From Clostridia bacterium (GTDB lineage Bacteria > Bacillota > Clostridia > Peptostreptococcales > Anaerovoracaceae), in assembly GCA_024684465.1 (NCBI GenBank), contig JAIKWW010000018.1:12592-36591 (forward strand): a DNA stretch of 24,000 nucleotides, in the 5' to 3' direction. This document shows positions 1,379 through 19,547 of the stretch, one piece after another. The notes below the pieces were generated by a model, which had not been told where the DNA came from, searched no databases, and saw only the letters and a program-made list of their open reading frames with translations. The position numbers and the translations under genes were made by a program. Numbering within the stretch: position 1 is the first letter of the stretch; every line of letters begins with the position of its first letter.

Positions 1379-1987
1379 TCAGAAGCACGGATGACAGCAC
1401 GGGTTGCATATAAGATTGATAAGACAAAGATCCATGCATCCGCAGCCGTTTCCCTGTGCATAACCACCGTACGGATTCTGTCTGTACGTATATGCGGCCC
1501 CACCATTTTCAAGCTGATTCAGAAGCTGACGATAACTGAGATTGCCCGGCTCGAGATTTACTGCCATGCGGGCACACTCAAGCGCAGCATAGTTGTTGCC
1601 CATTCCATCCTGTGCCACAGCACAAAGAGCATACCACCTGGCGTCTCTGTTTGAAATACCCATCAGAACGTTCATTCCCTCCTCGTAATGTCCGGAAGCT
1701 ATATAATTCTTCGCAGCCTGATAGTGAGCATCACTGTTATCACTATCGTATCCGGCATTTCCGCCAAAGGGATCAAAGCCGCCATATCCTGAGTTTCCGC
1801 CGTTCTTGCGTTCATTCATTATATGGTCATAAGCCTCATTGACAACCTTAAACATGTCTTCAGCCGCCTTATTTCCCGGATTTCTGTCCGGGTGATATTT
1901 TCGGGCCAGATTCCGATATGCTTTTTTTACTTCATCATCTGTTGCGTTTCTGTCAATGCCCAGAATCTTATAGGGATCAGACATCAT
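1379..1987 (-). CDS. J-domain (DnaJ N-terminal domain) protein with a Gly-rich linker, a TPR-like helical region and a Cys-rich hydrophobic C-terminal tail. It is not a canonical DnaJ, because it lacks the CxxCxGxG zinc-finger repeats.
   Basis: It carries the J-domain signature DPYKILGI...[14 protein letters not shown]. The C-terminus is [24 protein letters not shown]. Its start overlaps the upstream gene's stop (ATGATG/TGA, 1984..1987). Confidence 0.85.
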
Positions 1988-2955
1988 TCCGTCCTTTCTT
2001 CATTACCGGTTTCTGCTTTCCCGAAGGCAGCTTTCCTCCGCCTTTGCTGAGTCTCGCGAAAACTTCTCCATACCCCTGAATAAATTATATTTTTCAGTAT
2101 TTCATCTGTATTCTCTAAAGGGAGCATTTCAAAAGCCTCTGATACTTTTGCCATGTGAAGTCTCAGCATTTCCTCCACCTTTATTTCCAGAAGCATTCTC
2201 TCCCGATCTGAGGCACCTTTGAAATATTCCTTTAAAGGATTAAAAGTACCCTTTTTTAAATCGTCCTCTATATCTGCAAACGCATCGGACACGTAGATAA
2301 ACTTGCCAAGAAAGAATCCGATCTGCCTTAGATACCTGCTCCAGTTGTCATGCTGCACGTCGAATATTTCTTCCGTTATGCGTCCAAAACAGTTTGCAAG
2401 GCGTTCAGTTCCCGATAAAACCGGAAAAAGAATGCTTTCCCTTTTATCGTCCTCTTTTCCATTCCCCGAGAGTTGTTCACAGAAATCAGATCTGACTCCA
2501 TCCCATTCTCTCTCAAGCTGAGAAAGTTCTGTGAGTTTTTCATTCACAACCCGGGCGATTTCCGGATACTCTGCCGAGGCCCTTTCCACATCTTTCCGGA
2601 TCAGAGCAGCATATATCCTCCGGCTGTACTTTCTTTCATCATTCCAGTCGTCCATACATTTGCAGTATGTAAGCAGCATGTTCATATCAGCCGCATAGGA
2701 AGAAAAACGATTCGTTCTCTTCTCTCTCCTTCTGAAAGGATGCACAATGCACCTGTCATTCCTGAGAACTGTTTCCGTATCATAGAGACCGCTCATGAGG
2801 ATGATCAGAAATGTCATGTCATAACCCAGAGTAATACGTCCGGTGTTGCCATACTTTCTCTTTAAATCTGTACAGAGTCCACAGTAATATGATCTGTACA
2901 GATAAAAATCTTTAAACCTCATTTCGGGCTGATCTATCGTGACGATGCCAAACAT
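1984..2955 (-). CDS. DUF5685-like protein of uncharacterised function.
   Basis: The N-terminus [28 protein letters not shown] resembles the YCGLC-containing DUF5685 family as I recall it. The ORF-track start at 3201 would overlap the upstream gene and cross its terminator. The ATG at 2955 has a GGGAG 7 nt upstream. Confidence 0.6.
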
Positions 2956-2995
2956 GCTACGGCTCCCTGTATCTCGGATATTAACCAATGGTGAT

Positions 2996-3004
2996 ATTTT
3001 ACCA
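2996..3004 (-). promoter_or_regulatory. Possible extended -10 promoter element (TGgTAAAAT) for the DUF5685-like / J-protein / tmcAL unit.
   Basis: The minus strand reads tgTGGTAAAATatc about 40 nt upstream of the ATG at 2955 and downstream of the terminator at 3058..3092. No good -35 element is present. Confidence 0.3.
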
Positions 3005-3057
3005 CAATAAAAGAATGGTAATGTAGAGTTTTTATGAGAATTAGGTGAACTGCAGGC

Positions 3058-3092
3058 ATAAAAAACAGGTGCGACGAAAACCGTCGCACCTG
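3058..3092 (-). terminator. Rho-independent terminator of the molybdoenzyme operon.
   Basis: The minus strand forms an 11-bp perfect stem CAGGUGCGACG / CGUCGCACCUG with a GUUUU loop, followed by UUUUUU. It lies 40 nt after the stop at 3132. Confidence 0.8.
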
Positions 3093-3131
3093 AATTAAAC
3101 ATATTCAGACTAACTCTGAAAAGAATCTCGA

Positions 3132-5519
3132 TTAGAGGTTCTTGCCAACAGACTTCAGATAGTTCAGAACCTTTTCCGGAGTCATAGGCTCTTCTTTGCA
3201 TCTGTAACCGATTGCATCGTATACAGCGTTGAAGATTGCAGAAGGTGTAGGCTGGATAGGGCCTTCGCCGGATTCCTTACCACCGTAAGGAGCAGATGGG
3301 TCGAAGGACTCTACGATTACAGCGTCAACTTCTGGCATATCCAGAGTTCCGCAGAGCTTGTAGTCATGGAATGAAGGGTTCAGCAGACGGCCGTCGTCAG
3401 CATAACGCATTTCTTCGAGGAGTGCGTTACCGAGACCCATCTGGATGGAACCGTGTACCTGACCTTCGCAGGACATAGGGTTGATAGGCTGACCGAGGTC
3501 ACCAGCTTCGGAGATGTGGTTAACATGAACGAGACCAGTGTAGAGGTCAACTTCAACTTCAGCAACCTGGCAAGTGAATCCGAATGTAGGGGAGTGACCG
3601 ATGTTACCACCCTGCTGGATACCCTTTCTTCTAGGAGGTGTGTACTGACCAGTTGTTACGAGAGGTCCGAATGCAGAGATGTACATGGAAACTACTTCGT
3701 TCCAGTCAACATTCTTTCTCTTTCTCTCATAGATTGAGTAGAACTGATAGTCCTTAACACCAACTTCTTCGCCACGGCAACCCATGATGGATGCAGCAAC
3801 AGGGAACAGCTTAGCATTAGCAGCTTCGCATGCTCTTCTGATAGCCCAACCAGTAGCATAAGTTACTCGGGAAGCGAATGTACCGAGGTCGAATGTAGTT
3901 GTTTCTGTATCTCTGGATTCTACCTTAACGTCCTCAGCTCTGATACCGAGAGTTTCAGCAGCTTCCTGAGCCATAACCATGTCGCAGCCCTGACCGATAT
4001 CTGTAGCACCGCAGTAGAGAACTACGTTGTTTTCGCCTTCGATCTTAACCATAGCAACTGAATGTGGCTTGTAAGACAGATACAGAGTATAAGAAGTACC
4101 GGAGATGTAAGTACCACCGGACATACCGATGCCCTGTCCGAACGGCAGCTTACCGTACTTGTTTTCGAAATCAGCGTTGTCACAAGCAACCTGCATGGAC
4201 TTCTTGAATTCAGAATGAGGGATGTACATCATTGAACGGCAAGTGTGGCCGGATTCAATAGCGTTGATCATTCTGATCTTCAGTGGGGACATACCCAGCT
4301 TTTCAGCTGCCATATCCATCATGATTTCCATTGCGAATCTAGGCTGAGATCCACCGAGACCTCTGTGAGCACCGCAAGTATTTGTATTAGTGTAGATCAG
4401 CTTACCAGCGAACTTAGCAGCAGGCATTACATAAGGAATGTGAGTCATACCAGCTGTGTAGAACAGTACTACAACACCCCAGGACATGTAAGCGCCTGCA
4501 ACCATGATCTGGTTGTAGTCGATACCTGTGATGTGACCATCCTTATCGAAGCCCATTCTGAACTTCATGAATGCAGGGTGACGGCCCTGGTTATGAGCGA
4601 ATACTTCAGATCTCTCATAAACAGCCTTTACAGGACGACCGATTCTGCTGGAGAACTTGGAAGTGATGAAGTCTGCAGTTGCAGCAACACCCTTACCACC
4701 GAAACCACCACCGAGGAGTGGAACTGTGATTCTGATGTCCTTCAGAGGCATCTGGAGAACCTTAGCTAACTGCTGATGAGTATAGTGAGGTACCTGGCAA
4801 GTAGCATACAGGTGCAGCTTATGCTTATTTACATCGAAGTCAGCGAGTGCTGCCTGTGGCTCGATGTAAGCATGAGTGTACTGAGACTGATAGAATTCGT
4901 CTTCGATAACTACGTCAGAGTTAGCGAGGATTGCATCTACATCACCATATGCCTGAGTACCCTGGTGAGCGATGTTGGAAGGCTTGTCTTCGTGAATGAG
5001 AACACCTGTCTCATTAGCGAACTGCTCAGACTTACGAGCATCTGTAACTACAGGGAGAAGCTCATATTCAACGTCGATGAGTTCGAGAGCCTTTTCAGCG
5101 ATTTCTTCAGTTACTGCGCAAACAGCGGCAACTGGTTCACCCCACATACGAACCTTTTCTCTTGCGAGAACTTCTTCGTTTGCTGAGTGTGCTACGATAC
5201 CGTAATCGATAGGGAAATCCTTACCGGTCAGAACGTCGAGTACGCCTTCGAGCTCGAGAGCCTTGCTGAAGTCGATGTTCTTAATCTTAGCGTGAGCGTG
5301 TGGAGATCTGAGGATCTTAGCCCATGCCATTCTAGGAAGAGTCAGGTCGCCTGTATACTGATACTTACCGGTAACCTTGGAAGGACCGTCAAGTCTAGGA
5401 ATGGATCTGCCTACTTCAGTGTATTCTCTGGAGTAATCCTTAAAATCGTTATATTTATTAGCAACTTCGAACGTCTTATTCATTCCGCTCTTGATTTCTA
5501 CATTGTAAGTTTCGCCCAT
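3132..5519 (-). CDS. Molybdopterin-binding large subunit of a xanthine dehydrogenase / aldehyde oxidoreductase family enzyme.
   Basis: The 795-aa product contains LLGGGFGGKG, AHRGLGGSQ and the C-terminal GGKESGEGP...AIFNAVYDAIG with the catalytic Glu context. Its ATG directly abuts the TAA of the upstream 2Fe-2S subunit gene. Confidence 0.9.
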   Translation of the reverse strand: MGETYNVEIKSGMNKTFEVANKYNDFKDYSREYTEVGRSIPRLDGPSKVTGKYQYTGDLTLPRMAWAKILRSPHAHAKIKNIDFSKALELEGVLDVLTGKDFPIDYGIVAHSANEEVLAREKVRMWGEPVAAVCAVTEEIAEKALELIDVEYELLPVVTDARKSEQFANETGVLIHEDKPSNIAHQGTQAYGDVDAILANSDVVIEDEFYQSQYTHAYIEPQAALADFDVNKHKLHLYATCQVPHYTHQQLAKVLQMPLKDIRITVPLLGGGFGGKGVAATADFITSKFSSRIGRPVKAVYERSEVFAHNQGRHPAFMKFRMGFDKDGHITGIDYNQIMVAGAYMSWGVVVLFYTAGMTHIPYVMPAAKFAGKLIYTNTNTCGAHRGLGGSQPRFAMEIMMDMAAEKLGMSPLKIRMINAIESGHTCRSMMYIPHSEFKKSMQVACDNADFENKYGKLPFGQGIGMSGGTYISGTSYTLYLSYKPHSVAMVKIEGENNVVLYCGATDIGQGCDMVMAQEAAETLGIRAEDVKVESRDTETTTFDLGTFASRVTYATGWAIRRACEAANAKLFPVAASIMGCRGEEVGVKDYQFYSIYERKRKNVDWNEVVSMYISAFGPLVTTGQYTPPRRKGIQQGGNIGHSPTFGFTCQVAEVEVDLYTGLVHVNHISEAGDLGQPINPMSCEGQVHGSIQMGLGNALLEEMRYADDGRLLNPSFHDYKLCGTLDMPEVDAVIVESFDPSAPYGGKESGEGPIQPTPSAIFNAVYDAIGYRCKEEPMTPEKVLNYLKSVGKNL

Positions 5520-6002
5520 TTATAACACCCCACCTTCTGCAGCGCAAGCTTCAACAGCCTCGAAAATGAGAATATAACCAGTGCATCTGCAAAGGTTACC
5601 GGAGAGAGCTCTCTTGATCTCACCTCTAGTCGGCTTTGGATTATGAGATAATAAATTATAAGAAGACATTACCATACCAGGTGTGCAGTAACCGCACTGT
5701 ACAGCGCCGTGGTTGAGGAAAGACTTCTGAATCGGGTTCATTTCGCCAGTCTTCTGATCAGCGATACCTTCGATTGTAGTAATCTTCTTGCCCTGGCAAG
5801 CCATAGCAAGTGTCAGGCATGAGAGAACAGCCTTACCGTCGATGATAACAGTACATGCACCGCAGTCACCCTGGCCGCAGCCGATCTTAGTACCTGTGAG
5901 ACCAGCTTCTTTTCTGAGTACGTCAACAAGCAGATCAGTAGGAGCAACTCTCAGTTCCAGATCTTCGCCATTAATATTTAAAGTGATTATCTGTTTTTTC
6001 AT
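5520..6002 (-). CDS. [2Fe-2S]-binding small subunit of the xanthine dehydrogenase family.
   Basis: It has two Cys clusters: GCGQGDCGACTV (plant-ferredoxin type) and CGYCTPG...CRCTGY. The SD GGGAGGTG lies upstream of the ATG. Confidence 0.9.
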   Translation of the reverse strand: MKKQIITLNINGEDLELRVAPTDLLVDVLRKEAGLTGTKIGCGQGDCGACTVIIDGKAVLSCLTLAMACQGKKITTIEGIADQKTGEMNPIQKSFLNHGAVQCGYCTPGMVMSSYNLLSHNPKPTRGEIKRALSGNLCRCTGYILIFEAVEACAAEGGVL

Positions 6003-6016
6003 TTCATTACACCTCC

Positions 6017-6892
6017 CTACTTCTTGATCTCGTCAGCGAGGTCTCTGAGGATTCTTCTTGTCAGAGCGCCGATTACATCAACTCTGTACTGAGCGGAAGC
6101 TCTAACGTCAGTGATAGGATGAACCTCAGACTGAGCAGCTTCAGCAGCCTTCTTGATAACTTCTTCGTCACCAATCTTAGTGCCCTTGAGTACAGCAGGA
6201 ACAGCTTCAGAAATGAGCGGCTTGATTGCAACAGATCCCATAACAACCATAGCGTCCTTGATAGTGTCGCCATCTACGTCTAATCTGATGCACATGTTTG
6301 CAACGTCGATTTCCATTGATCTTCTGAGACCAACGTAAGCATACTTAACGTAAGTATTCTTATCAGGCTCAGGAAGAATGATAGTCTTGATGATTTCGCC
6401 TGGCTTCAGACAGTTCTTTCTGTTACCGGTGATGAAATCTTCTACAGGAATAGTTCTTTCACCTTCCTTGCTAACGAGTACGAGCTGTGCTCTGTAGCAG
6501 ATCAGGGAAGCCGGAGTCTCAGCGGAAGGACCGGAGTTGGAGAGGTTACCACCGATGGTACCCATTTCTCTAACCTGTGGGCCGCCGATTTCGCCTGCAG
6601 CATAAGAGAATGCAGGGAACTTAGCCTGTAATTCCTTGGAGAATTCGCAGAAAGCATCAGTAGTGCAAGCACCGATTACAGCGCCCTTACCATCTTCAAC
6701 CTTGAATTCGTTGAGTTCAGGAATATGCTTGATGTCAATAACGTTTGCTGGATGAATGATTTTTTCCTTCAGCTGAACTACCAGGTCTGTACCGCCTGCT
6801 ATAACTTTGGCGTTTTCCTTAGTAGCTAACAGTTCGAGGGCCTCGTCCAGAGTTTCTGGAGCGAAATACTCAAATGGAGTTAAAATATTCAA
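6017..6892 (-). CDS. FAD-binding medium subunit (CO dehydrogenase flavoprotein / XdhB-like).
   Basis: It contains an AGGTDL dinucleotide motif and a typical N-terminus FEYFAPETLDEALELL. The track start at 6901 is a GTG embedded in the SD AAGGAGG. The TTG at 6892 has 8-nt spacing and is preferred, although the exact start remains uncertain. Confidence 0.85.
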   Translation of the reverse strand: MNILTPFEYFAPETLDEALELLATKENAKVIAGGTDLVVQLKEKIIHPANVIDIKHIPELNEFKVEDGKGAVIGACTTDAFCEFSKELQAKFPAFSYAAGEIGGPQVREMGTIGGNLSNSGPSAETPASLICYRAQLVLVSKEGERTIPVEDFITGNRKNCLKPGEIIKTIILPEPDKNTYVKYAYVGLRRSMEIDVANMCIRLDVDGDTIKDAMVVMGSVAIKPLISEAVPAVLKGTKIGDEEVIKKAAEAAQSEVHPITDVRASAQYRVDVIGALTRRILRDLADEIKK

Positions 6893-7078
6893 ACAAGCCA
6901 CCTCCTTAAAAATAAAAAATTTGTTTAGTGTCCGACATATCTGTTCCGAAAAGAACGACCCGCACCAATTTGCAGCTTGATACCGATCATAGACTTGTCA
7001 GATTGTTTATTAATTTAGATCAGACCGGAGCCCGATTAAATTACATCCTTTAAGGTTTTTGCACCCACCTAATTACAA

Positions 7079-7095
7079 TGCAAATTCCATGCCAA
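7079..7095 (-). promoter_or_regulatory. Sigma-54 (RpoN) -24/-12 promoter for the molybdoenzyme operon.
   Basis: The minus strand reads TTGGCATGGAATTTGCA, that is TGGCAT-N5-TTGCA with the canonical GG-to-GC spacing. It lies about 185 nt upstream of the first operon start and immediately downstream of a sigma-54 activator gene. Confidence 0.75.
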
Positions 7096-7133
7096 CTTAA
7101 AAATCTTTGTTAAAAAATTATTCCATATTTTTT

Positions 7134-7155
7134 AAATGTTGAGTTTTCAACATTT
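7134..7155. repeat. Perfect 9-bp inverted repeat AAATGTTGA-gttt-TCAACATTT; its function is unknown.
   Basis: Read directly from the sequence. It is centred about 50 bp upstream of the -24 element. Confidence 0.5.
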
Positions 7156-7229
7156 TTGAACTCTTCATTTAATCGTATGGTCAATTTTATTTCTCACAAA
7201 TTTTTCGCATTATGAAAATCATTATAACA

Positions 7230-7247
7230 TGTAAATTGTAGTTTACA
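7230..7247. promoter_or_regulatory. Candidate enhancer (UAS) palindrome TGTAAA-N6-TTTACA (TGT-N12-ACA type).
   Basis: The arms extend to 7 bp (ATGTAAA/TTTACAT, 7229..7248). It lies about 135-150 bp upstream of the -24 element. A third TTTACA half-site sits at 7277..7282, and TGTAAATT recurs twice at the activator's own promoter. Confidence 0.35.
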
Positions 7248-7348
7248 TTTCTGTTAACTATAATGTATAACTTTTGTTTACAGTCAATTCTCTTTCACTT
7301 TCAGAAAATCTGCGGTTTCAAAAGCCGGCATCCACCGTTTTCATAATA

Positions 7349-8824
7349 TCACTTAATATTGTACTTTTCCAGCTTTTTATACAACATAGTCCTGGAGATG
7401 TCCAGCATCCGTGCAGCCCTGGACCGGTTGCCACCACACTGTTTCAGCGCATTTATCACAGCTTCCCTCTCGTTTCTGTTCTTGACCTCACTGAGGGATT
7501 CAACCCGTTCTCTTTTTTCTTCGGAAACAGCCTCTTTCTCCTCTGCCTCTTCAGTATTGCCGTACTTTATATTCTCATTTTCCTGCAGGAAGGCTGTGTT
7601 CATTATGTAACTTTTTCCAAAGATTTCCTGTTCGGGTTCGAATTTTCTGAAATCATCCACGGTAAGTATGTTGGAACCAGTCCCTGCAACAGCTCTCTCC
7701 ACAGCATTCTGCAGTTCCCTGACATTTCCCGGCCAGTCTTTTTCACAAAGATATTCCACGGCGCCGGAGGAGATATCGCTTACATACCCGTTGGCTTCAT
7801 CGTGATATCGCTGCAGAAAGAGTTGAAGCAGCGGGTAGATATCCTCTTTTCTCTGACGGAGCGGCGGTATTTTTATAGTAATAATGTTGAGGCGGTAATA
7901 GAGGTCCCTCCGGAATACGCCTTTTTCAACCAGATAATCCAACGGCATATTGGAAGCCGCTATCACCCGGACATCCACAGGCACGCTCTCCACTCCGCCG
8001 ATCCTCTCGATTTCTTTTTCCTGAAGTGCTCTCAGCAGCTTGGGCTGCATTGAGAGATCCATCGCATTTATTTCGTCAAGAAACATACTTCCAAGGTGAG
8101 CCTTTTCAAATTTTCCCGCTCTTCCACCTTTGACCCCTCCGGTGAAGCTTCCTTCCTCATAACCAAAGAATTCAGATTCCATCAGATTTTCCGGAATTGC
8201 AGAGCAGTTCACTCTAATAAACGGAAACAGACTTCTCCTGCTGCAGTTGTGGATCGCATGGGCAACCAGTTCCTTGCCCGTTCCGGTCTCTCCCTCGATG
8301 AGGCACGAAGCGTTGGTGGATCCCGCAATGTAGATCTGCTCCCTTACACGCTGCATCTCAGGGCTGTTGCCGATGATATCATTTATTTTATATTTCGCCA
8401 TTCCGCTGAAATCGGAATGATCACTGATATAGCCGAACTCTTCCATAATATGTTCAAATCGCTCATTGAAAGCCTGAGCCTCATCCATATCACTGAAGAT
8501 GGAAGTCACCAGACAGCCGGTGATCTCATTATCGGAGTCCTTAATCGGCGTGTACTTCATGATGCCCTGAAGTTCGCGGCCCGCATTGGTCCTCATGAAC
8601 ATCTCTCCGGAAATGACTTTTCCCGTCCTGATGGACAAGAGCGCCGCAGAACCACGGATGACCTCCTCTGCGGAACGTCCCAGCACATTGCTCTCCGGCA
8701 TGCCCGTTGCGATCTGCCAGGGCTTATTTACATAAACATATCTCCCGGCCCGGTCGAGGTACGCCACGATCCCGGCCTGATTCAGAATGTTTCGAAAAAA
8801 ATCATTATTTATGAAATTGTCCAC
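7349..8824 (-). CDS. Sigma-54-dependent transcriptional activator with PAS sensor, AAA+ and Fis-type HTH domains.
   Basis: It has Walker A GETGTGKE, Walker B MFLDEI and the sigma-54 contact loop ESEFFGYEEGSFTGG (a GAFTGA variant). The C-terminal HTH reads NRSRAARMLDISRTMLYKKLEKY, and the N-terminus is PAS-like. The start is a GTG placed unusually close to the GAGGAG, so it is uncertain. Confidence 0.9.
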   Translation of the reverse strand: MDNFINNDFFRNILNQAGIVAYLDRAGRYVYVNKPWQIATGMPESNVLGRSAEEVIRGSAALLSIRTGKVISGEMFMRTNAGRELQGIMKYTPIKDSDNEITGCLVTSIFSDMDEAQAFNERFEHIMEEFGYISDHSDFSGMAKYKINDIIGNSPEMQRVREQIYIAGSTNASCLIEGETGTGKELVAHAIHNCSRRSLFPFIRVNCSAIPENLMESEFFGYEEGSFTGGVKGGRAGKFEKAHLGSMFLDEINAMDLSMQPKLLRALQEKEIERIGGVESVPVDVRVIAASNMPLDYLVEKGVFRRDLYYRLNIITIKIPPLRQRKEDIYPLLQLFLQRYHDEANGYVSDISSGAVEYLCEKDWPGNVRELQNAVERAVAGTGSNILTVDDFRKFEPEQEIFGKSYIMNTAFLQENENIKYGNTEEAEEKEAVSEEKRERVESLSEVKNRNEREAVINALKQCGGNRSRAARMLDISRTMLYKKLEKYNIK

Positions 8825-11015: not shown

Positions 11016-11834
11016 TTATTTTCCTCCGGAAAGTTCATCATGTGCAAGTTCAACAACTTCAGCCGCCTTATCACAAAATGCCGGGAAATCAAACTCTTCG
11101 CGACTCCCCTTCCTTAGGAGAATGAGATATTCTATGTTACCCTTGGCACCGGTCATGGGAGAAAAAGTTAGTCCCTCCGGAACAAGTCCGTTTTCCAGGG
11201 CATATCCTGCAACTTTCTCGATTACTTCACGATGTACCGACTTGTCCCTGACTATACCCTTCTTGCCAACCTGTTCCCTGCCGGCTTCAAACTGGGGTTT
11301 TACGAGGCATACCAGTCTGGCATAATCATTAATCAGCTTCACCGCAGAGGGGAAGATCAGGTTAAGGGATATAAAAGAAACGTCAGCGCTGAGAAAATCC
11401 AGCTTCTCGGCTACTGTTTCCGGATCGAAATAGCGAAAGTTAACCTTTTCCATATTAACTACCCGTTCGTCCGTACGGAGTTTCCAGTCAAGCTGTCCGT
11501 AACCCACATCCACAGAATACACTTTACGCGCTCCGTTCTGAAGCATGACATCCGTAAATCCGCCGGTGGATGCTCCCACATCCATGCATACCGAATCCTT
11601 CAGATCGATCCCGAACTCTTTTATTGCTTTATCGAGTTTATATCCTCCCCGTCCCACAAAAGGACAGGTATCTCCCTTGAGTTCGATTTCAGAATCCACA
11701 TCCACAGGAGTTCCCGGCTTGTCAAAGATCTGACCGCCTATGTATATCTTACCGGCCATGATCTCAGCCTTTGCCCGTTCTCTGGATTTGAAGAAACCCC
11801 TTTTGACAAGGAGCACGTCTAATCTTTCTTTCAT
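11016..11834 (-). CDS. tlyA: TlyA-family 16S/23S rRNA (cytidine-2'-O)-methyltransferase with S4 and FtsJ domains.
   Basis: It has the N-terminal S4 domain MKERLDVLLVKRGFFKSRERAKAEI and the SAM motif MDVGASTGGFTD. Its start overlaps the dxs stop (ATGA). Confidence 0.85.
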   Translation of the reverse strand: MKERLDVLLVKRGFFKSRERAKAEIMAGKIYIGGQIFDKPGTPVDVDSEIELKGDTCPFVGRGGYKLDKAIKEFGIDLKDSVCMDVGASTGGFTDVMLQNGARKVYSVDVGYGQLDWKLRTDERVVNMEKVNFRYFDPETVAEKLDFLSADVSFISLNLIFPSAVKLINDYARLVCLVKPQFEAGREQVGKKGIVRDKSVHREVIEKVAGYALENGLVPEGLTFSPMTGAKGNIEYLILLRKGSREEFDFPAFCDKAAEVVELAHDELSGGK

Positions 11835-13756
11835 TTTTCTTCACCCTCAGGTTTCGTTTCCGTCACGGAAGCCTTCACCTTTCCCGAGGCTCTCGCAAAT
11901 CTGCGGGCAAGCCCCAGAGCGTCAAGGCCATACTGTTCCTCCAGTTCCTTCTGCTTGCCGTGAGGGATGAACTCATCCGGCCAGCCGATCTTTTTTATTT
12001 TAACTGCAAATCCGAAGTTCTCAGCCAGATCTTCCACCTCGCTTCCAAAACCACCGGATGTCACATTATCTTCAACTGTTATGATGTGATGCGTCTTTCT
12101 GGCCGACCGTTCGATCACTTCGGTATCCAGAGGCTTGACCTTTCTCACATCGATCACTTCCACGGAAATGCCCTTTTCCTTAAGGGCCTCCGCTGCTTTT
12201 ATACACCGTCTGGTCATCTTGCCCACTGCAAGAACAGTCAGGTCTTCACCTTCAACCCTGACCTCAGGCCCTATCTGCTCAGGCACACGGGTCACACTTA
12301 TGGACTCTTCCGGCATGGATGCCTTGCCTTTTGGATAACGGATAGCCACAGGGCCGTCCACTATCATGGCGTAATCCATCATCCGGCGGAGTTCAGCTCC
12401 GTCTGAAGGCGCAAGAATTGTCAGGTTCGGCATGTGCATGAGATAGGAAAGATCGAATATGCCCTGATGAGTTTCTCCATCCTCCCCAACGATGCCTGCT
12501 CTGTCTATGGCAAAGATCACAGGGAGATTCTGCATACATACGTCCATGAGAATCTGGTCATAAGCCCGCTGCAAAAACGTGGAATAGATTGCCACAAAAG
12601 GCCTCATCCCGCAGAGCGCCATTCCTGCTGCAAATGACACTGCGTGCTCCTCCGCAATTCCGACATCATATATCTTCTCCGGGAACTGTCTTGCGAAGCG
12701 GGAAAGACCCGTACCGTCAGTCATGGCGGCAGTCACAACGGTGATGCGGTTGTCCCTGGTGGCCATGGCGCAAAGTTTGCTGCCGAAAACTTCAGAAAAA
12801 GTCTTCGGGTTGTCAACGTTTGACTCTATGCCGATTTCCGTATTAAAAGGTCCCACACCATGATATTTCTCTGGGCTGTTCTCTGAAAGGCTGTAACCTC
12901 TGCCCTTTTGCGTGATGCAGTGAACAAGCACCGGTCCCCCTGCCCGTTTGGCTGCTTCGAGGGCTTCCACCATTTCTGCTACATTGTGACCGTCAACCGG
13001 TCCCATGTATGTAAGACCCATCTCTTCAAACATGATGCCGGGCACGATCAGATACTTGACCATATCCCTCATAGTTGAAAGGCCCTTGGTAACACCCTGA
13101 CCTACTCCTGGTATTTTGCCCAGTCCGGACTTCAGTCCCGTCTTCAGTTTCTTATATCTGTCTGAGGTTCTCAGCTTCGCAAGATGTTTTGACAATCCGC
13201 CTCTGTTTTTCGAAATGGACATGGCATTATCATTCAGAACTATGATAATATCCGTATTCATATCCCCTGCATTGTTCAGCGCTTCGAAAGCCATTCCTCC
13301 CGTCATGGCTCCGTCGCCGATTACTGCGACCACTGAATTATTGAGACCCTCACGGTCCCGTGCCACAGCCATGCCCAGCGCCACAGAAATCGAATTGCTG
13401 CTGTGCCCCGAGTCGAATGTGTCATATTCACTTTCATCTCTCTTGGGGAATCCGCTGAGTCCGTCCTTCTGGCGCAGGGATTCAAATCTGTTCCCCCTGC
13501 CGGTGAGCATCTTGTGCACATATGTCTGATGTCCCACGTCCCAAACTATCTTGTCACGGGGTGCATTGAACACTTTATGCAGCGCTACCGTTAGTTCTAT
13601 TATTCCCAGATTCGACGCAAGATGTCCCCCGGTTTCGGAGACAGTATTGATGATCTTCTTCCGGAGCATTGAACATAACTGTTCAAGTTCCTCCGGTTTC
13701 ATGTTATTTAAATCTGACGGGAAGATTCCTTCTTCTATAGTCTTCATAATATTCAT
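11831..13756 (-). CDS. dxs: 1-deoxy-D-xylulose-5-phosphate synthase.
   Basis: The 641-aa product has GGHLASNLG, VWDVGHQTY, the ThDP motif GDGAMTGGMAFEALN and AEEHAV. Confidence 0.95.
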   Translation of the reverse strand: MNIMKTIEEGIFPSDLNNMKPEELEQLCSMLRKKIINTVSETGGHLASNLGIIELTVALHKVFNAPRDKIVWDVGHQTYVHKMLTGRGNRFESLRQKDGLSGFPKRDESEYDTFDSGHSSNSISVALGMAVARDREGLNNSVVAVIGDGAMTGGMAFEALNNAGDMNTDIIIVLNDNAMSISKNRGGLSKHLAKLRTSDRYKKLKTGLKSGLGKIPGVGQGVTKGLSTMRDMVKYLIVPGIMFEEMGLTYMGPVDGHNVAEMVEALEAAKRAGGPVLVHCITQKGRGYSLSENSPEKYHGVGPFNTEIGIESNVDNPKTFSEVFGSKLCAMATRDNRITVVTAAMTDGTGLSRFARQFPEKIYDVGIAEEHAVSFAAGMALCGMRPFVAIYSTFLQRAYDQILMDVCMQNLPVIFAIDRAGIVGEDGETHQGIFDLSYLMHMPNLTILAPSDGAELRRMMDYAMIVDGPVAIRYPKGKASMPEESISVTRVPEQIGPEVRVEGEDLTVLAVGKMTRRCIKAAEALKEKGISVEVIDVRKVKPLDTEVIERSARKTHHIITVEDNVTSGGFGSEVEDLAENFGFAVKIKKIGWPDEFIPHGKQKELEEQYGLDALGLARRFARASGKVKASVTETKPEGEEK

Positions 13757-13792: not shown

Positions 13793-14380
13793 CTATGTAT
13801 TTTTGTCTTTCTTTTTCCTTTTTGTACCGTGTTCCGCAAATATCGCTATGAATTTGCTGACCCCGTTGATAATCTCCTTGGATCTGGATATGGCGATCTC
13901 TTTTCCGACAGCCTTGCCTCCGATGGTCATGGAGGCGACAAATCCGCTGAGAATCACAGAGCAAAGGGCAGCGTCTGCAAGTCCTGCAGATGCTATCTGC
14001 GTTACAATAAAGGCAGATGCGGATCCACTGATGATCCCGCAGGTATCACCCACCACATCGTTAAAGAGATTGGATACTCTGCTGGCATTTTTTAGGAGCA
14101 TAAGAGCACTTTTTGCTCCGCGGATCTTTCCTGCTGCCATGGAATGAAAAGGTTTTTCATCCGCCACGGTAACCGCGACTCCCAATATATCAAACAGAAT
14201 ACCTATAAAAATGATGACGATCAGAATTATAAATGCCACCAGTATTGACGATTTTGAAAGGAGCATGTCAGAAAACATACTCATGAAAACAGACAGCAGA
14301 AATGCCGCAATGGTGATCAGTACCACCCATCTTCGTCGGGCTTTTTCCGCATCTCTGTCTTTATTCTTATTTTTAGCCAT
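13793..14380 (-). CDS. oapA: Small polytopic membrane protein. By position it is the OLE-associated protein OapA.
   Basis: The 195-aa product has a basic N-terminus, about four hydrophobic segments and a basic C-terminus. It lies immediately downstream of the structured non-coding gap and upstream of dxs, which is the published oapA position. The family call rests on context, not on a search. Confidence 0.6.
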   Translation of the reverse strand: MAKNKNKDRDAEKARRRWVVLITIAAFLLSVFMSMFSDMLLSKSSILVAFIILIVIIFIGILFDILGVAVTVADEKPFHSMAAGKIRGAKSALMLLKNASRVSNLFNDVVGDTCGIISGSASAFIVTQIASAGLADAALCSVILSGFVASMTIGGKAVGKEIAISRSKEIINGVSKFIAIFAEHGTKRKKKDKNT

Positions 14381-14399
14381 TTTATTCTACCATTAGTCC

Positions 14400-15070
14400 G
14401 CAACTGCTGCGGATCTCTCCCGGGTTTCGGAGCATCATCTGATGTCCTCAGTCAACCGGGCTGACGAGACAAATAAAAAATAAGTGGACGATCTGAATGT
14501 TAACTTTATGGCATAGGTCCGGTAAGATTTCCTGCGATGCTGCTGGTCCGTCGCCGGATCAGCGGTTTCCCTTTAAAGCTCCGCACGCCAAGTTGCCTTA
14601 GACGTGACCGGATTACCACTAAGTCCATACTGCAATCCATAGAGATCAAACAGCCTAGGGGATTTCCCCGGCAGTATTGGCCATCCCTATCCTCTTTTGC
14701 AATGCAGGTTTCAGGCAGCAATTGACACAATCCTCCGGCCGTGAGGAACAGCGTCACAGTTCTGCAATCCCCCTGAATCACTCAAGGCAGGCTACGCTTA
14801 GGGAGCAGCCGTACAAAAGAACTTGTACAGCCACGCCGTCAGGTTTATTTCTTGCAGGTGCAAAGAACGCGCCCACAAGCCTCCACGACAAACAGGGATC
14901 GCGCCCATATGCCATTATGGATCGCCCTGTGTGTCTTTCTCCCAGAAATTGCCCCCGACTGGGCGTCAGCGGCAAGATCAAGGAGCTTCATCGATGTGCC
15001 CTTTGACGGATTTTTGGGCCCGTCTTCAGGACAGCCAAATTCTGACTAGGATACTGCGCCACTTATTACA
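14400..15070 (-). ncRNA. ole: Large structured non-coding RNA, a candidate OLE (ornate, large, extremophilic) RNA. The boundaries are approximate.
   Basis: A 695-nt gap separates the ispA stop and the oapA-like start. It has about 50% GC, whereas the other intergenic spacers here are AT-rich. Only short, mutually overlapping ORFs occur on both strands. There are many minus-strand hairpins (14807..14832, 14771..14787, 14658..14669, the GNRA hairpin 14547..14558, 14429..14447, 14397..14413). The synteny xseA-xseB-ispA-[RNA]-membrane protein-dxs-tlyA matches the described OLE locus. Confidence 0.65.
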
Positions 15071-15075
15071 GTATT

Positions 15076-16065
15076 TTATGACAAGCGTGAAGCCAGGTCA
15101 AGAGCCATCCTGGTGAGGAACAGTTCTCCTTCCTCATTGCCTCCTGCCGCTTTTATCCCTGAGGCCACAGCTTCAGATGTAATCCTGTCCGCAATTTCAT
15201 ATGACTTTTTCAGCCCGTACTCAGATGGGTATGACAATTTCCCCAGCATCCGGTCAACTCCGGTTTTCTTTCCCAGAGCCGCTTCATCTCCGGTTACATC
15301 GAGGATGTCATCCACTATCTGAAATACGACACCGATCTTCTCGCCGTATTCTCCAAAGGCATCGAGACGTTCTCCGCTGCATCCCGCCAGGAGTGCCCCG
15401 GCACGCACCGCAGCCCGGATCATCGCACCGGTCTTGTTGGCATGGATATACAGGAGAATCTCCTCATCGGAGCATCCTGCTTCAGAAAGACATGCTCCCG
15501 CCTTTTCTCGATCGACACAATGCTGATTGCTTTCGCCGGTCATCATGAGGTCCGTCATCTGTCCGGCTATCATCCCCTGAACTCCCGCCGCGCCGGAAAT
15601 CTCAGCAGCGGCATTTATTCTTGAAAGAATCTGTGCCTTATCTTCACCATGCATGACCGCGTTCCTGATATCTTCCAGCATGATGTCAAAAGCGGAATTG
15701 AGAAGCCCGTCACCGGCAAGTATCGCTGTTCCATCTCCAAATACCTTGTGGTTTGTCGGTTTTCCCCTCCTCAGATCATCATCGTCCATGGATGGATGGT
15801 CATCGTGGATCAGAGAATATGTGTGAATGAACTCCATGGCAGCTGCGTAGGGCATAGCCTGTTCAATACTACCGCCACAGATTTCACAGCATGCAAGCAG
15901 TAAAACCGGCCTGAGGCGTTTTCCACCGGCCGCAAGACTGTACTCCATTGCATCACGGAGCATGCGGCTTCTGATATCCACTGCCGGGATAAATCCCGCA
16001 AGAGCTTCATTCACAAAGTCCGCATAAGACTGATATTTTTCCCTGAAGTCTGATTCTCTGCTCAC
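15076..16065 (-). CDS. ispA: (2E,6E)-farnesyl diphosphate synthase (polyprenyl synthetase family).
   Basis: The first Asp-rich motif is LIHDDHPSMDDDDLRRG and the second is FQIVDDILD; KTGAMI is also present. The GTG start overlaps the xseB stop (GTGA) and has a GGAGG upstream. Confidence 0.9.
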   Translation of the reverse strand: MSRESDFREKYQSYADFVNEALAGFIPAVDIRSRMLRDAMEYSLAAGGKRLRPVLLLACCEICGGSIEQAMPYAAAMEFIHTYSLIHDDHPSMDDDDLRRGKPTNHKVFGDGTAILAGDGLLNSAFDIMLEDIRNAVMHGEDKAQILSRINAAAEISGAAGVQGMIAGQMTDLMMTGESNQHCVDREKAGACLSEAGCSDEEILLYIHANKTGAMIRAAVRAGALLAGCSGERLDAFGEYGEKIGVVFQIVDDILDVTGDEAALGKKTGVDRMLGKLSYPSEYGLKKSYEIADRITSEAVASGIKAAGGNEEGELFLTRMALDLASRLS

Positions 16066-17758: not shown

Positions 17759-18436
17759 TCAGAATTCTATCCCGTAAGCCTTCCGGCGCTCTTCAACAGC
17801 CTTCACTTCCTCCGGTGTGAGTATGTGCGGTTCCGGTACATGACCGGTTATCACCAGCATATTAGCATAGTATTCCAGAGTTTCCAGTCTGTAGTAAGCC
17901 TGCATCATATTCTGCCCCCAGGTCAGCACCCCGTGGCTCGCCATCAGCAGAGCGGCATGTCCCTTCACATAGGGGATTATAGTCTCAGCCAGTTCAGGAG
18001 AACCCGGCGTTGCAAAAGGCGCACACGGCACGGTTCCCAGATTCAGCAGAGCCTCTGTCACCACAGGGATATCCAGATCTTTCCTGGCACAGGCAAATGC
18101 TGTAGCCACCGGCGGATGAGCGTGAACCACCGCACCCACCTCCGGTCTTTCCCTGTACACGTTGAGATGAAGCTGCAGTTCGGAAGAAGCATGCATGCCT
18201 CCCTTGTTCTCCAGCTCATTGCCATCCATATCCACTTTTATGAGGATATCTTCGCTCATAAATCCCTTGGACACACCGGACGGAGTGATCCAGAGATTTC
18301 CGTCAGCCGTCCTGCAGCTGATATTTCCGTCATTCGCCGCGCAGTAATTCTTGTCGTACATTCTCCTGCCAACTTCCAGGATCGATGCCTTCGCCTCTTC
18401 ATCTCCGGGAAGCGGCTTCTTCAGTGCCTCACTCAT
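17759..18436 (-). CDS. Class II (zinc) aldolase/adducin-family protein. It is probably a 5-methylthioribulose-1-P / 5-deoxyribulose-1-P aldolase or an MtnB-like dehydratase.
   Basis: The zinc ligands are present (HAHPPVATAF and MASHGVLTWG), as is a catalytic Glu context (SSELQLH). It overlaps the mtnA stop by 8 nt. Confidence 0.75.
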   Translation of the reverse strand: MSEALKKPLPGDEEAKASILEVGRRMYDKNYCAANDGNISCRTADGNLWITPSGVSKGFMSEDILIKVDMDGNELENKGGMHASSELQLHLNVYRERPEVGAVVHAHPPVATAFACARKDLDIPVVTEALLNLGTVPCAPFATPGSPELAETIIPYVKGHAALLMASHGVLTWGQNMMQAYYRLETLEYYANMLVITGHVPEPHILTPEEVKAVEERRKAYGIEF

Positions 18437-19547
18437 CGCGAACCTCCTTCCGCTGTTCCATCTTCTTTTTTTCCATTATATCCCTCAGAGAGACGTCATA
18501 CGGCGGATACGCCACACCGTACTCAGTGATTATCCCGGCTATGAGCTCATGATCTGTCACGTCAAAGGCCGGATTATACGTCCGGACCTCCCTGAGCGCC
18601 ATGGGTTCGCTGTACCACATATCCGTTATATCCGTGCCGTCCCTCTGTTCGATAACTATGTCCTCTCCGGTGGCCGTTCCCATATCTATGGTTGAAGTCG
18701 GGGCTGCGATATAGAGCGGGATCCCGTAATGCTTCGCCAGAATCGCCACTCCCAGTGTGCCTATCTTGTTTGCGGAATCGCCGTTTGCGGCAACCCGGTC
18801 ACAGCCCGTGATAACTGTCTGCACCTTGCCTTCTTTCATCACCGATGCAGCCATATTGTCGCAGATCAGCGTCACATCCACTCCCGCCAGCTGAAGCTCT
18901 GTGGAGGTGAGACGCGCCCCCTGTAACAGAGGCCTGGTTTCATCCGCATAGACGTGAAAACCGTAACCCCTCTCCTGCCCCAGATAGATTGGAGCCGTGG
19001 CAGTACCGTACCGCACCGTCGCCAGATGCCCCGCATTGCAGTGAGTCAGGATACCCTGTCCCCTTTTCAGCAGCGGGAGTCCGTTTTCTCCAAGCTTCCT
19101 GCAGACTTCTATATCTTCATTTTTAATAGTCAGCGCCTCGACACGCAGCCTGCTGACGATCTCCTCCGGAGTGCTGTCAACCAGTCCCTCCGCGAGATCC
19201 ATCATCCGGTCCACCGCCCACTTCAGATTGACCGCCGTCGGCCTGGCCAGAACCAGTTCCCCGGCCGCCTTACGCAGTTCTTCCATAAAGCCTTTTCTGT
19301 CATTTCCGGCAACATTTAACGCGTCCAGCGCCGACAGATAAACTGCGATGCCGGCAGCAACTCCTATAGCAGGAGCTCCTCTGACTCTCAGCCTCTTTAT
19401 GGCATCTATAATTTCCCTCCGGTCCCTCAGCTCAACCAGCTTCACAGTTCCCGGAAGCACCGACTGGTCAATGATCACCAGCCTTTCACCGTCCTCAGAC
19501 AGATTGACGGTATCCGTTTCCAGAATATTAATGATTTCTTTTTCCAT
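18429..19547 (-). CDS. mtnA: S-methyl-5-thioribose-1-phosphate isomerase (eIF-2B alpha/beta/delta-like family).
   Basis: It contains VRGAPAIGVAAG, THCNAG, ADETRPLLQGARLT, GCDRVAANGD-ANKIGT and PAFDVT. Confidence 0.9.
   Translation of the reverse strand: MEKEIINILETDTVNLSEDGERLVIIDQSVLPGTVKLVELRDRREIIDAIKRLRVRGAPAIGVAAGIAVYLSALDALNVAGNDRKGFMEELRKAAGELVLARPTAVNLKWAVDRMMDLAEGLVDSTPEEIVSRLRVEALTIKNEDIEVCRKLGENGLPLLKRGQGILTHCNAGHLATVRYGTATAPIYLGQERGYGFHVYADETRPLLQGARLTSTELQLAGVDVTLICDNMAASVMKEGKVQTVITGCDRVAANGDSANKIGTLGVAILAKHYGIPLYIAAPTSTIDMGTATGEDIVIEQRDGTDITDMWYSEPMALREVRTYNPAFDVTDHELIAGIITEYGVAYPPYDVSLRDIMEKKKMEQRKEVRDE

Follow-up and report, generated by a model that had tools for sequence, protein, structure and literature searches.

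An ordinary full-length OLE RNA locus and its membrane-protein partner OapA in a Clostridia bacterium

The 695-nt gap between ispA and the gene of a small membrane protein in a Clostridia bacterium almost certainly encodes, on the minus strand, a full-length OLE RNA; the next gene is that of OapA, the membrane partner of this RNA. The gap lies in a 24,000-nt stretch of DNA—called the window throughout and numbered from its first letter—and its product is near certain to be an OLE RNA, with no evidence to the contrary. OLE (ornate, large, extremophilic) RNA is a large bacterial non-coding RNA family, reportedly introduced by Puerta-Fernandez et al. in 2006, and the copy in the window is an ordinary, already known, full-length member of it. 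Members of the family have been found in 2,822 Bacillota genomes and fall into full-length and variant types (Fernando & Breaker, 2024; PMC11332333). The original prediction had proposed, from the letters alone, an OLE locus with a membrane-protein partner; the full-length Rfam match, the covarying helices and the oapA gene downstream all uphold it. It was right without yielding anything new, because the locus is a textbook OLE copy beside oapA.

Results

Identity and position of the RNA gene

The features that make up the locus are the following (window coordinates).

15076–16065, minus strand: ispA (farnesyl diphosphate synthase), the upstream neighbour of OLE, whose 3′ end carries the putative ole promoter
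14381–15075, in the minus-strand gene string: the gap, 695 nt, from the ispA stop codon (TAA, 15078–15076) to the ATG at 14380
14468–15078, minus strand: OLE RNA gene, 611 nt, bounds as given by Rfam RF01071
14381–14467, minus strand: spacer between OLE and oapA, 87 nt, outside the conserved RNA
13793–14380, minus strand: oapA (OLE-associated protein A), encoding a 195-aa membrane protein
11831–13756, minus strand: dxs, directly 3′ of oapA

The spacer between the ispA stop and the next start runs from 14381 to 15075 as predicted, and it is the longest non-coding stretch of the gene string, the runner-up (6902–7348) having 447 nt. Its GC content had been judged by eye to be about 50%; the value is 0.514, against 0.31, 0.30 and 0.38 in the three spacers originally set beside it, with 0.486 for the window as a whole.

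The whole window was scanned against Rfam 15 at gathering thresholds (50 bits for the OLE model, RF01071), and OLE was the sole match. It covers model positions 1–616 of 616 without truncation, from 15078 to 14468 on the minus strand, with a score of 427.5 bits (E = 1.3e-122). A set of relatives was collected through the 195-aa protein, which has 814 homologues; an alignment of 14 of these served to retrieve 80 loci from species-representative genomes. All 19 loci that were scanned with Rfam carry a full-length OLE directly upstream of the OapA homologue (394–536 bits), and nhmmer with the RNA of the window as query placed OLE directly upstream of the OapA homologue in 76 of the 80, with five further partial matches in loci that end short upstream of oapA. 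At the level of single nucleotides, the RNA has all 120 invariant columns of an alignment of 51 OLE sequences, in which many more columns are nearly invariant.

The closest relatives of both OapA and the RNA are found in metagenome-assembled genomes of Anaerovoracaceae and other Clostridia. OapA is only 64–68% identical in the closest species-representative genomes and so, judging by this protein, the host species may be undescribed.

One of the fetched loci, from an Anaerosolibacter metagenome-assembled genome (L042; NZ_JARBTM010000007.1, 2809–3429), is irregular. Rfam reports a full-length OLE there (403.9 bits), yet its first ~100 nt align to no other OLE, the nhmmer match starts at query nt 96 and there is no promoter-like motif upstream. 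The 5′ end of this copy may be rearranged, or the contig may be misassembled.

Fold and covariation

Projection of the model structure onto the window gave 141 pairs, 125 of them standard. The alignment in which pairing was examined holds 51 OLE RNAs, namely that of the window and 50 from other Clostridia, and was made with MAFFT and not fitted to the model. The structure tested comprised the projected pairs, the terminal stem P1 and a 10-bp stem noted in the original prediction, together 26 helices and 160 pairs. Across the 51 sequences 80.4% of pair cells are standard-paired, as opposed to 40–48% when the partners are slid by 1–3 columns, and compensatory changes on both sides occur at 127 of the 160 pairs; none of 500 shuffles reached the observed values of pairing and covariation. 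The helices thus covary. Both ends of the RNA are unpaired in the Rfam structure line; in the window they form P1. Two other long-range helices were assigned to P2 and P3 after a 2025 review; the names of stems P2–P10 follow the text of reviews, together with position.

The local helices that had been read from the letters fared unevenly. The 10-bp stem is present (14832–14823 with 14816–14807), contains two G-U pairs and a 6-nt loop, and forms the tip of P8. The variable hairpin to which it belongs (helix 10) is 36% paired and aligns poorly across lineages, which is an alignment limit and not evidence against the stem. GGGG-AAAU-CCCC (14669–14658) proved to be a consensus OLE hairpin, and UCCG-GCGA-CGGA (14558–14547), with its GNRA loop, the tip of the consensus hairpin P14.1. 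The proposed hairpin CCUUGA-GUGAU-UCAGGG (14787–14771) is absent from the consensus fold, with which it conflicts because both of its arms are 5′ strands of the covarying P9 helix (nt 291–389). The 9-mer GGAUUGCAG does occur twice, as had been claimed, and both copies begin at a conserved GGAU; the significance of the repeat is marginal, two matches being found in 4 of 100 shuffles.

Anatomy of the RNA

Stem by stem, the RNA is laid out as follows.

15059–15067, minus strand: 5′ strand of P1, AAUAAGUGG, pairing with 14479–14487 as a 9-nt perfect inverted repeat, 571 nt apart
14479–14487, minus strand: 3′ strand of P1, CCACUUAUU, with a U-rich run (14478–14468) after it
15029–15038 (OLE nt 41–50), minus strand: 5′ strand of the helix assigned to P3/P3.1, pairing with 14677–14686 (nt 393–402)
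15005–15024 (OLE nt 55–74), minus strand: hairpin assigned to P4, with an A-rich loop; 95.8% paired, the A residues of the loop nearly invariant
14931–14997, minus strand: P5/P5.1 hairpin (OLE nt 94–139) with loop GCCCA, and its flanking strands
14887–14935 (OLE nt 144–192), minus strand: P6 region with an inner hairpin; helices 4–6, 83–99% paired, loop invariant
14797–14879, minus strand: variable hairpins assigned to P7 (nt 200–228) and P8 (nt 237–282)
14690–14788 (OLE nt 291–389), minus strand: long helix P9 (helices 12–15), with the palindromic loop GGCC at 14740–14737
14491–14648 (OLE nt 431–588), minus strand: 3′ domain (helices 18–26), 84–100% paired, with many compensatory changes
14605–14585 (OLE nt 474–494), minus strand: P13, with a bulged U at 14600 (U479) and a GCAA loop at 14596–14593 (nt 483–486)
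14563–14542 (OLE nt 516–537), minus strand: P14.1, with a GCGA loop at 14554–14551

The inner five pairs of P1 are 90–100% paired in the 51 sequences, and three of them show frequent double changes (GC 27 / AU 20; UA 26 / CG 20; AU 24 / GC 17). In the window all 10 pairs of the helix formed by nt 41–50 and 393–402 are standard; across the alignment each of them shows compensatory changes, and 80.8% of the cells of the helix are paired. Its assignment to P3/P3.1 combines its position with the text of PMC12265935; P3/P3.1 has been put forward in the literature as a membrane-spanning helix.

Three kinds of published contact can be traced in the sequence. Strands flanking P5 are described in PMC9723947 as refolding into a k-turn bound by OapC; the corresponding strands in the window are ACAUCGAUGAAG on the 5′ side, identical to the 5′ strand of 38 of the 51 homologues, and GGGAGAAAGAC on the 3′ side. 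Checked by hand and by eye, not with a k-turn model, the two fit a C-helix, a 3-nt bulge and G-A pairs. The contacts that hold the RNA dimer together in cryo-EM structures are the P4 loop, the kissing loops of P5.1 and P6.1 and a kissing contact of the P9 loop. All four features are found in the window, at positions with little or no variation in the alignment, and the P6 inner loop, AAUGGCAU, and the P5.1 loop, GCCCA, are complementary. For OapB, P13 is the primary recognition site and P14.1 the secondary one (PMC7936274), and each of the two carries a GNRA loop in all 51 sequences. As far as sequence can tell, the features for OapB binding, OapC binding and RNA dimerisation are all present.

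The RNA resembles the full-length type of PMC11332333 in its length of 611 nt, its full consensus fold, its conserved nucleotides and the presence of its own predicted promoter at P1, and likewise in having oapA directly downstream, isoprenoid and DNA-repair neighbours and, judging by its closest relatives, a probable anaerobic Bacillota-like host. It differs in a shorter hairpin at the P7 position, a longer one at the P8 position and the lack of a small hairpin at model positions 424–435. All three peculiarities are common to the Anaerovoracaceae-like clade of the window, in which 32 nt for P7 and 46 nt for P8 are usual (overall ranges 14–68 and 26–58 nt).

Reduced OLE types have been described for the TANB77 and RF39 clades: variant 1, with short P7–P9 and no OapB site, and variant 2, without P7 or P8. 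That the RNA of the window is one of these is very improbable. The hairpin at the P7 position is indeed shorter than in the Rfam consensus, with 12 pairs instead of 17, but P7 and P8 are both there, P9 at 99 nt equals the median of all 51 sequences, P13 retains its bulge and GNRA loop, and the model is covered over its whole length. The presence of P7 and P8, the long P9 and the P13 tip place the RNA in the full-length type and in neither variant 1 nor variant 2.

At the other end of the size range are the Oscillospiraceae/Faecousia loci (L019–L080; alignment A2, columns 218–290), in which the hairpin at the P7 position reaches 68 nt, compared with 32 nt in the window. Most of these loci are without ispA directly upstream of ole (e.g. 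L033).

Selective constraint and coding potential

A near-identical relative of the locus was found in a metagenomic Logan contig of 2 kb, identified through its 98%-identical OapA (P0001). The contig carries a 611-nt OLE scoring 429.6 bits, and over the 1,892 nt that can be aligned it differs from the window at 72 positions, distributed by segment as follows.

ispA segment: 28 differences in about 516 positions
OLE segment: 1 difference in 608 positions
tail segment between OLE and oapA: 8 differences in 87 positions, the fastest-changing segment
oapA segment: 34 differences in 588 positions

The flanking ispA and oapA thus diverge by ~5–6%. OLE is far more constrained than the protein genes on either side of it, which indicates strong purifying selection. 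A single change in 608 positions against 5–6% in the flanks argues against a decaying, non-functional OLE relic. Such a relic might be suspected from the 16 of 141 modelled pairs that are non-standard in the window and from the absent consensus hairpin at model positions 424–435, but that hairpin is missing, and P7 short, throughout the clade, and neither the promoter, nor oapA, nor any known contact motif appears damaged. We give the relic very little credence, as little as a reduced type.

Protein-coding capacity offers a still poorer account of the gap. The original prediction had noted short nonsense open reading frames on both strands. They do occur on both strands, as mechanical ORFs of 48–109 aa, though at up to 109 aa they are not all short. 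A small protein, or several, might be sought in the 91-aa or 67-aa sense frames or the 109-aa antisense frame, yet none of these keeps its frame in relatives: intact frames without internal stops are seen in 4 of 51 sequences for the 91-aa frame, 8 of 51 for the 67-aa frame and 2 of 51 for the 109-aa antisense frame, the others being broken or stopped. In OLE sequences at large the median stop-free stretch is ~107 codons long, and the substitutions in OLE are compensatory across helices rather than three-periodic. That the gap encodes protein is accordingly a very remote prospect.

The weakest alternative, a different or highly divergent large structured RNA in the ispA–dxs slot (the fallback of the original prediction), has a negligible chance and is excluded by the end-to-end model match, with a score inside the range of bona fide Clostridia OLE loci, by the full set of shared invariant columns and by the single Rfam family at the site.

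Promoter and RNA ends

The OLE RNA has a candidate promoter of its own.

15073–15101, minus strand: putative sigma-70-type ole promoter, with −35 TTGACC (15101–15096), a 17-nt spacer and −10 TAAAAT (15078–15073)

The motif matches the consensus at 10 of 12 positions; its −35 element lies within the last codons of ispA and its −10 element overlaps the stop codon of that gene. Of the 51 OLE loci, 50 have a promoter-like motif at the same position, often with an extended TG, and in 38 of the 50 its −10 element ends 11–13 nt before the invariant G of GUGG (13 nt in the window). The clade of the window always has CTTGACC as −35, inside the end of ispA, and the overlap of the −10 with the ispA stop is likewise kept in that clade. 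From the position of this promoter, transcription is likely to start near 15067–15064, where P1 begins. Experiments in B. halodurans have shown an expression gain of more than 100-fold from the proximal promoter, with 5′ RACE ends at the beginning of P1 (PMC3413148), so the promoter is a feature already known.

An RNA starting there would be ~590–600 nt long and closed by P1 (15067–15059 with 14487–14479). Together with the U-rich run at 14478–14468, P1 could act as a leaky 3′-end signal. It is further conceivable, if rather unlikely, that the promoter embedded in ispA and a leaky end at P1 and the U-run would set the ratio of OLE RNA to OapA and couple ole to read-through from xseA–xseB–ispA. 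Were this layout to hold, it would refine the regulation of a known system slightly and would not amount to a new kind of element. A terminator-like site on the plus strand (14539–14566) is merely the reverse complement of hairpin P14.1.

The 87-nt tail between the RNA and oapA was also considered as a structured leader or terminator and was rejected as either. Its predicted fold is no better than that of shuffled sequence (z = −0.61), there is no terminator-like site on the minus strand within it, and it diverges fast; the length of this spacer varies widely among relatives. Two hairpins originally counted with the structured RNA, at 14429–14447 and 14397–14413, lie in this tail and hence outside the RNA, and do not survive these results. 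We treat the tail as ordinary spacer. Near its end, at 14381–14396, there is no clear Shine-Dalgarno sequence within 15 nt of the oapA ATG (…CUAAUGGUAGAAUAAAAUG), and the nearest GGAGAG lies 35 nt upstream of that ATG, beyond a 6-bp hairpin.

The downstream membrane protein

The 195-aa protein has no significant Pfam or NCBIfam family, even at E up to 10; some of its 814 homologues carry PF01595. An exact look-up of its sequence returned no record. The protein contains a DxxxD motif, DVVGD at residues 108–112, of which D108, V109, G111 and D112 are invariant in 14 homologues; this motif has been published as the feature that sets OapA apart from CNNM domains. Its N- and C-terminal tails are basic. 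The AlphaFold model (pLDDT 78) has long helices at residues 5–42, 46–72, 99–131 and 137–165, and its top six fold matches in the PDB are the CNNM membrane domains of CorB/CorC, including 7M1U, with probabilities of 0.98–1.0, TM-scores of 0.42–0.58 and weak E-values (0.013–0.63). The relation to CNNM/CorB emerged from fold comparison only, a profile search of PDB sequences with OapA having given nothing meaningful. On its motif, its predicted fold and its conserved position beside OLE, we take the 195-aa protein to be OapA.

By description, it is like the OapA of Halalkalibacterium halodurans, a small membrane protein encoded after ole, with a DxxxD motif, basic tails and a CNNM-like predicted fold without CBS or CorC domains; 7M1U is a reported top PDB match of the H. 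halodurans protein as well. With the Mg2+ transporters of the MpfA/CorB/CNNM group it shares the fold of the transmembrane domain, as predicted for the protein of the window. MpfA, in contrast, has CBS and CorC cytoplasmic domains and three membrane helices rather than four, and is without both the DxxxD motif and an RNA partner. MpfA and OLE have been reported to be anticorrelated, and a functional overlap has been suggested.

Gene neighbourhood

The gene order around the RNA is xseA, xseB, ispA, ole, oapA, dxs, tlyA, with every gene on the minus strand. A search of the accessible literature returned no paper that mentions OLE RNA along with ispA, dxs or xseA, and gene order was measured directly in the related loci. 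Of 73 testable loci, 69 have dxs after oapA; ispA lies immediately 5′ of OLE in 19 of 68 testable loci, most of them in the clade of the window and in other Peptostreptococcales-like genomes. The order in the window and its relatives agrees with published reports that link ole to isoprenoid, DNA-repair and translation genes.

Several neighbouring genes have peculiarities of their own. The ispA product has 329 aa against a farnesyl diphosphate synthase profile of 288 positions, and the match coordinates imply that the middle of the enzyme contains an insertion of ~25–30 residues. Immediately upstream of xseA and in the same orientation, mtnA (methylthioribose-1-phosphate isomerase) overlaps a gene for a class II aldolase/MtnB-like protein (17759–19547). 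The region 3132–8824 (minus strand) holds a three-subunit molybdenum hydroxylase operon of the 4-hydroxybenzoyl-CoA reductase/xanthine dehydrogenase family; upstream of the operon lie the AT-rich 447-nt spacer at 6902–7348 (GC 0.31) and, at 7349–8824, a gene for a sigma-54-dependent activator resembling PrdR. At 1379–3201 the gene of a DUF5685 protein (405 aa) overlaps the next gene, which encodes a 202-aa protein with a DnaJ J-domain only; the two form an uncharacterised pair.

Discussion

Taken with published work, the locus allows a working model. Transcription would begin at about 15066, from the sigma-70-type promoter embedded in the final codons of ispA, and inside P1 the RNA would fold through the long-range helices P2 and P3, then P4–P9 and then the 3′ domain with P13 and P14.1. 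By analogy with the published B. halodurans and Clostridium work, OLE RNA would dimerise through the P4, P5.1/P6.1 and P9 loops, and dimers of the four-helix, CNNM-like OapA would tether it to the membrane. On the same model, OapB would bind the GNRA loop and bulge of P13, and OapC the k-turn beside P5. The resulting particle may help the cell to withstand cold, short-chain alcohols, excess Mg2+ and poor carbon sources.

What such a particle would do at the molecular level is addressed by the leading hypothesis of the field, which is not a demonstrated fact: OLE RNA may be the regulatory or sensing module of OapA, acting as a divalent-cation (Mg2+) transporter, and may stand in for the CBS and CorC domains of MpfA. 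By analogy we consider this a serious contender for the locus of the window, with a likelihood that approaches an even chance without exceeding it.

For annotation, the value of the analysis lies in labelling the 695-nt gap as ole and the 195-aa “hypothetical” membrane protein as oapA. It further indicates that the OLE family is recognisable from context and local structure alone, which is how the original prediction arrived at it. OLE RNA ranks among the largest bacterial non-coding RNAs that still lack an assigned biochemical role, and recent structures suggest that it may span the membrane; to this family the locus adds one typical example, from an uncultured Anaerovoracaceae-like anaerobe.
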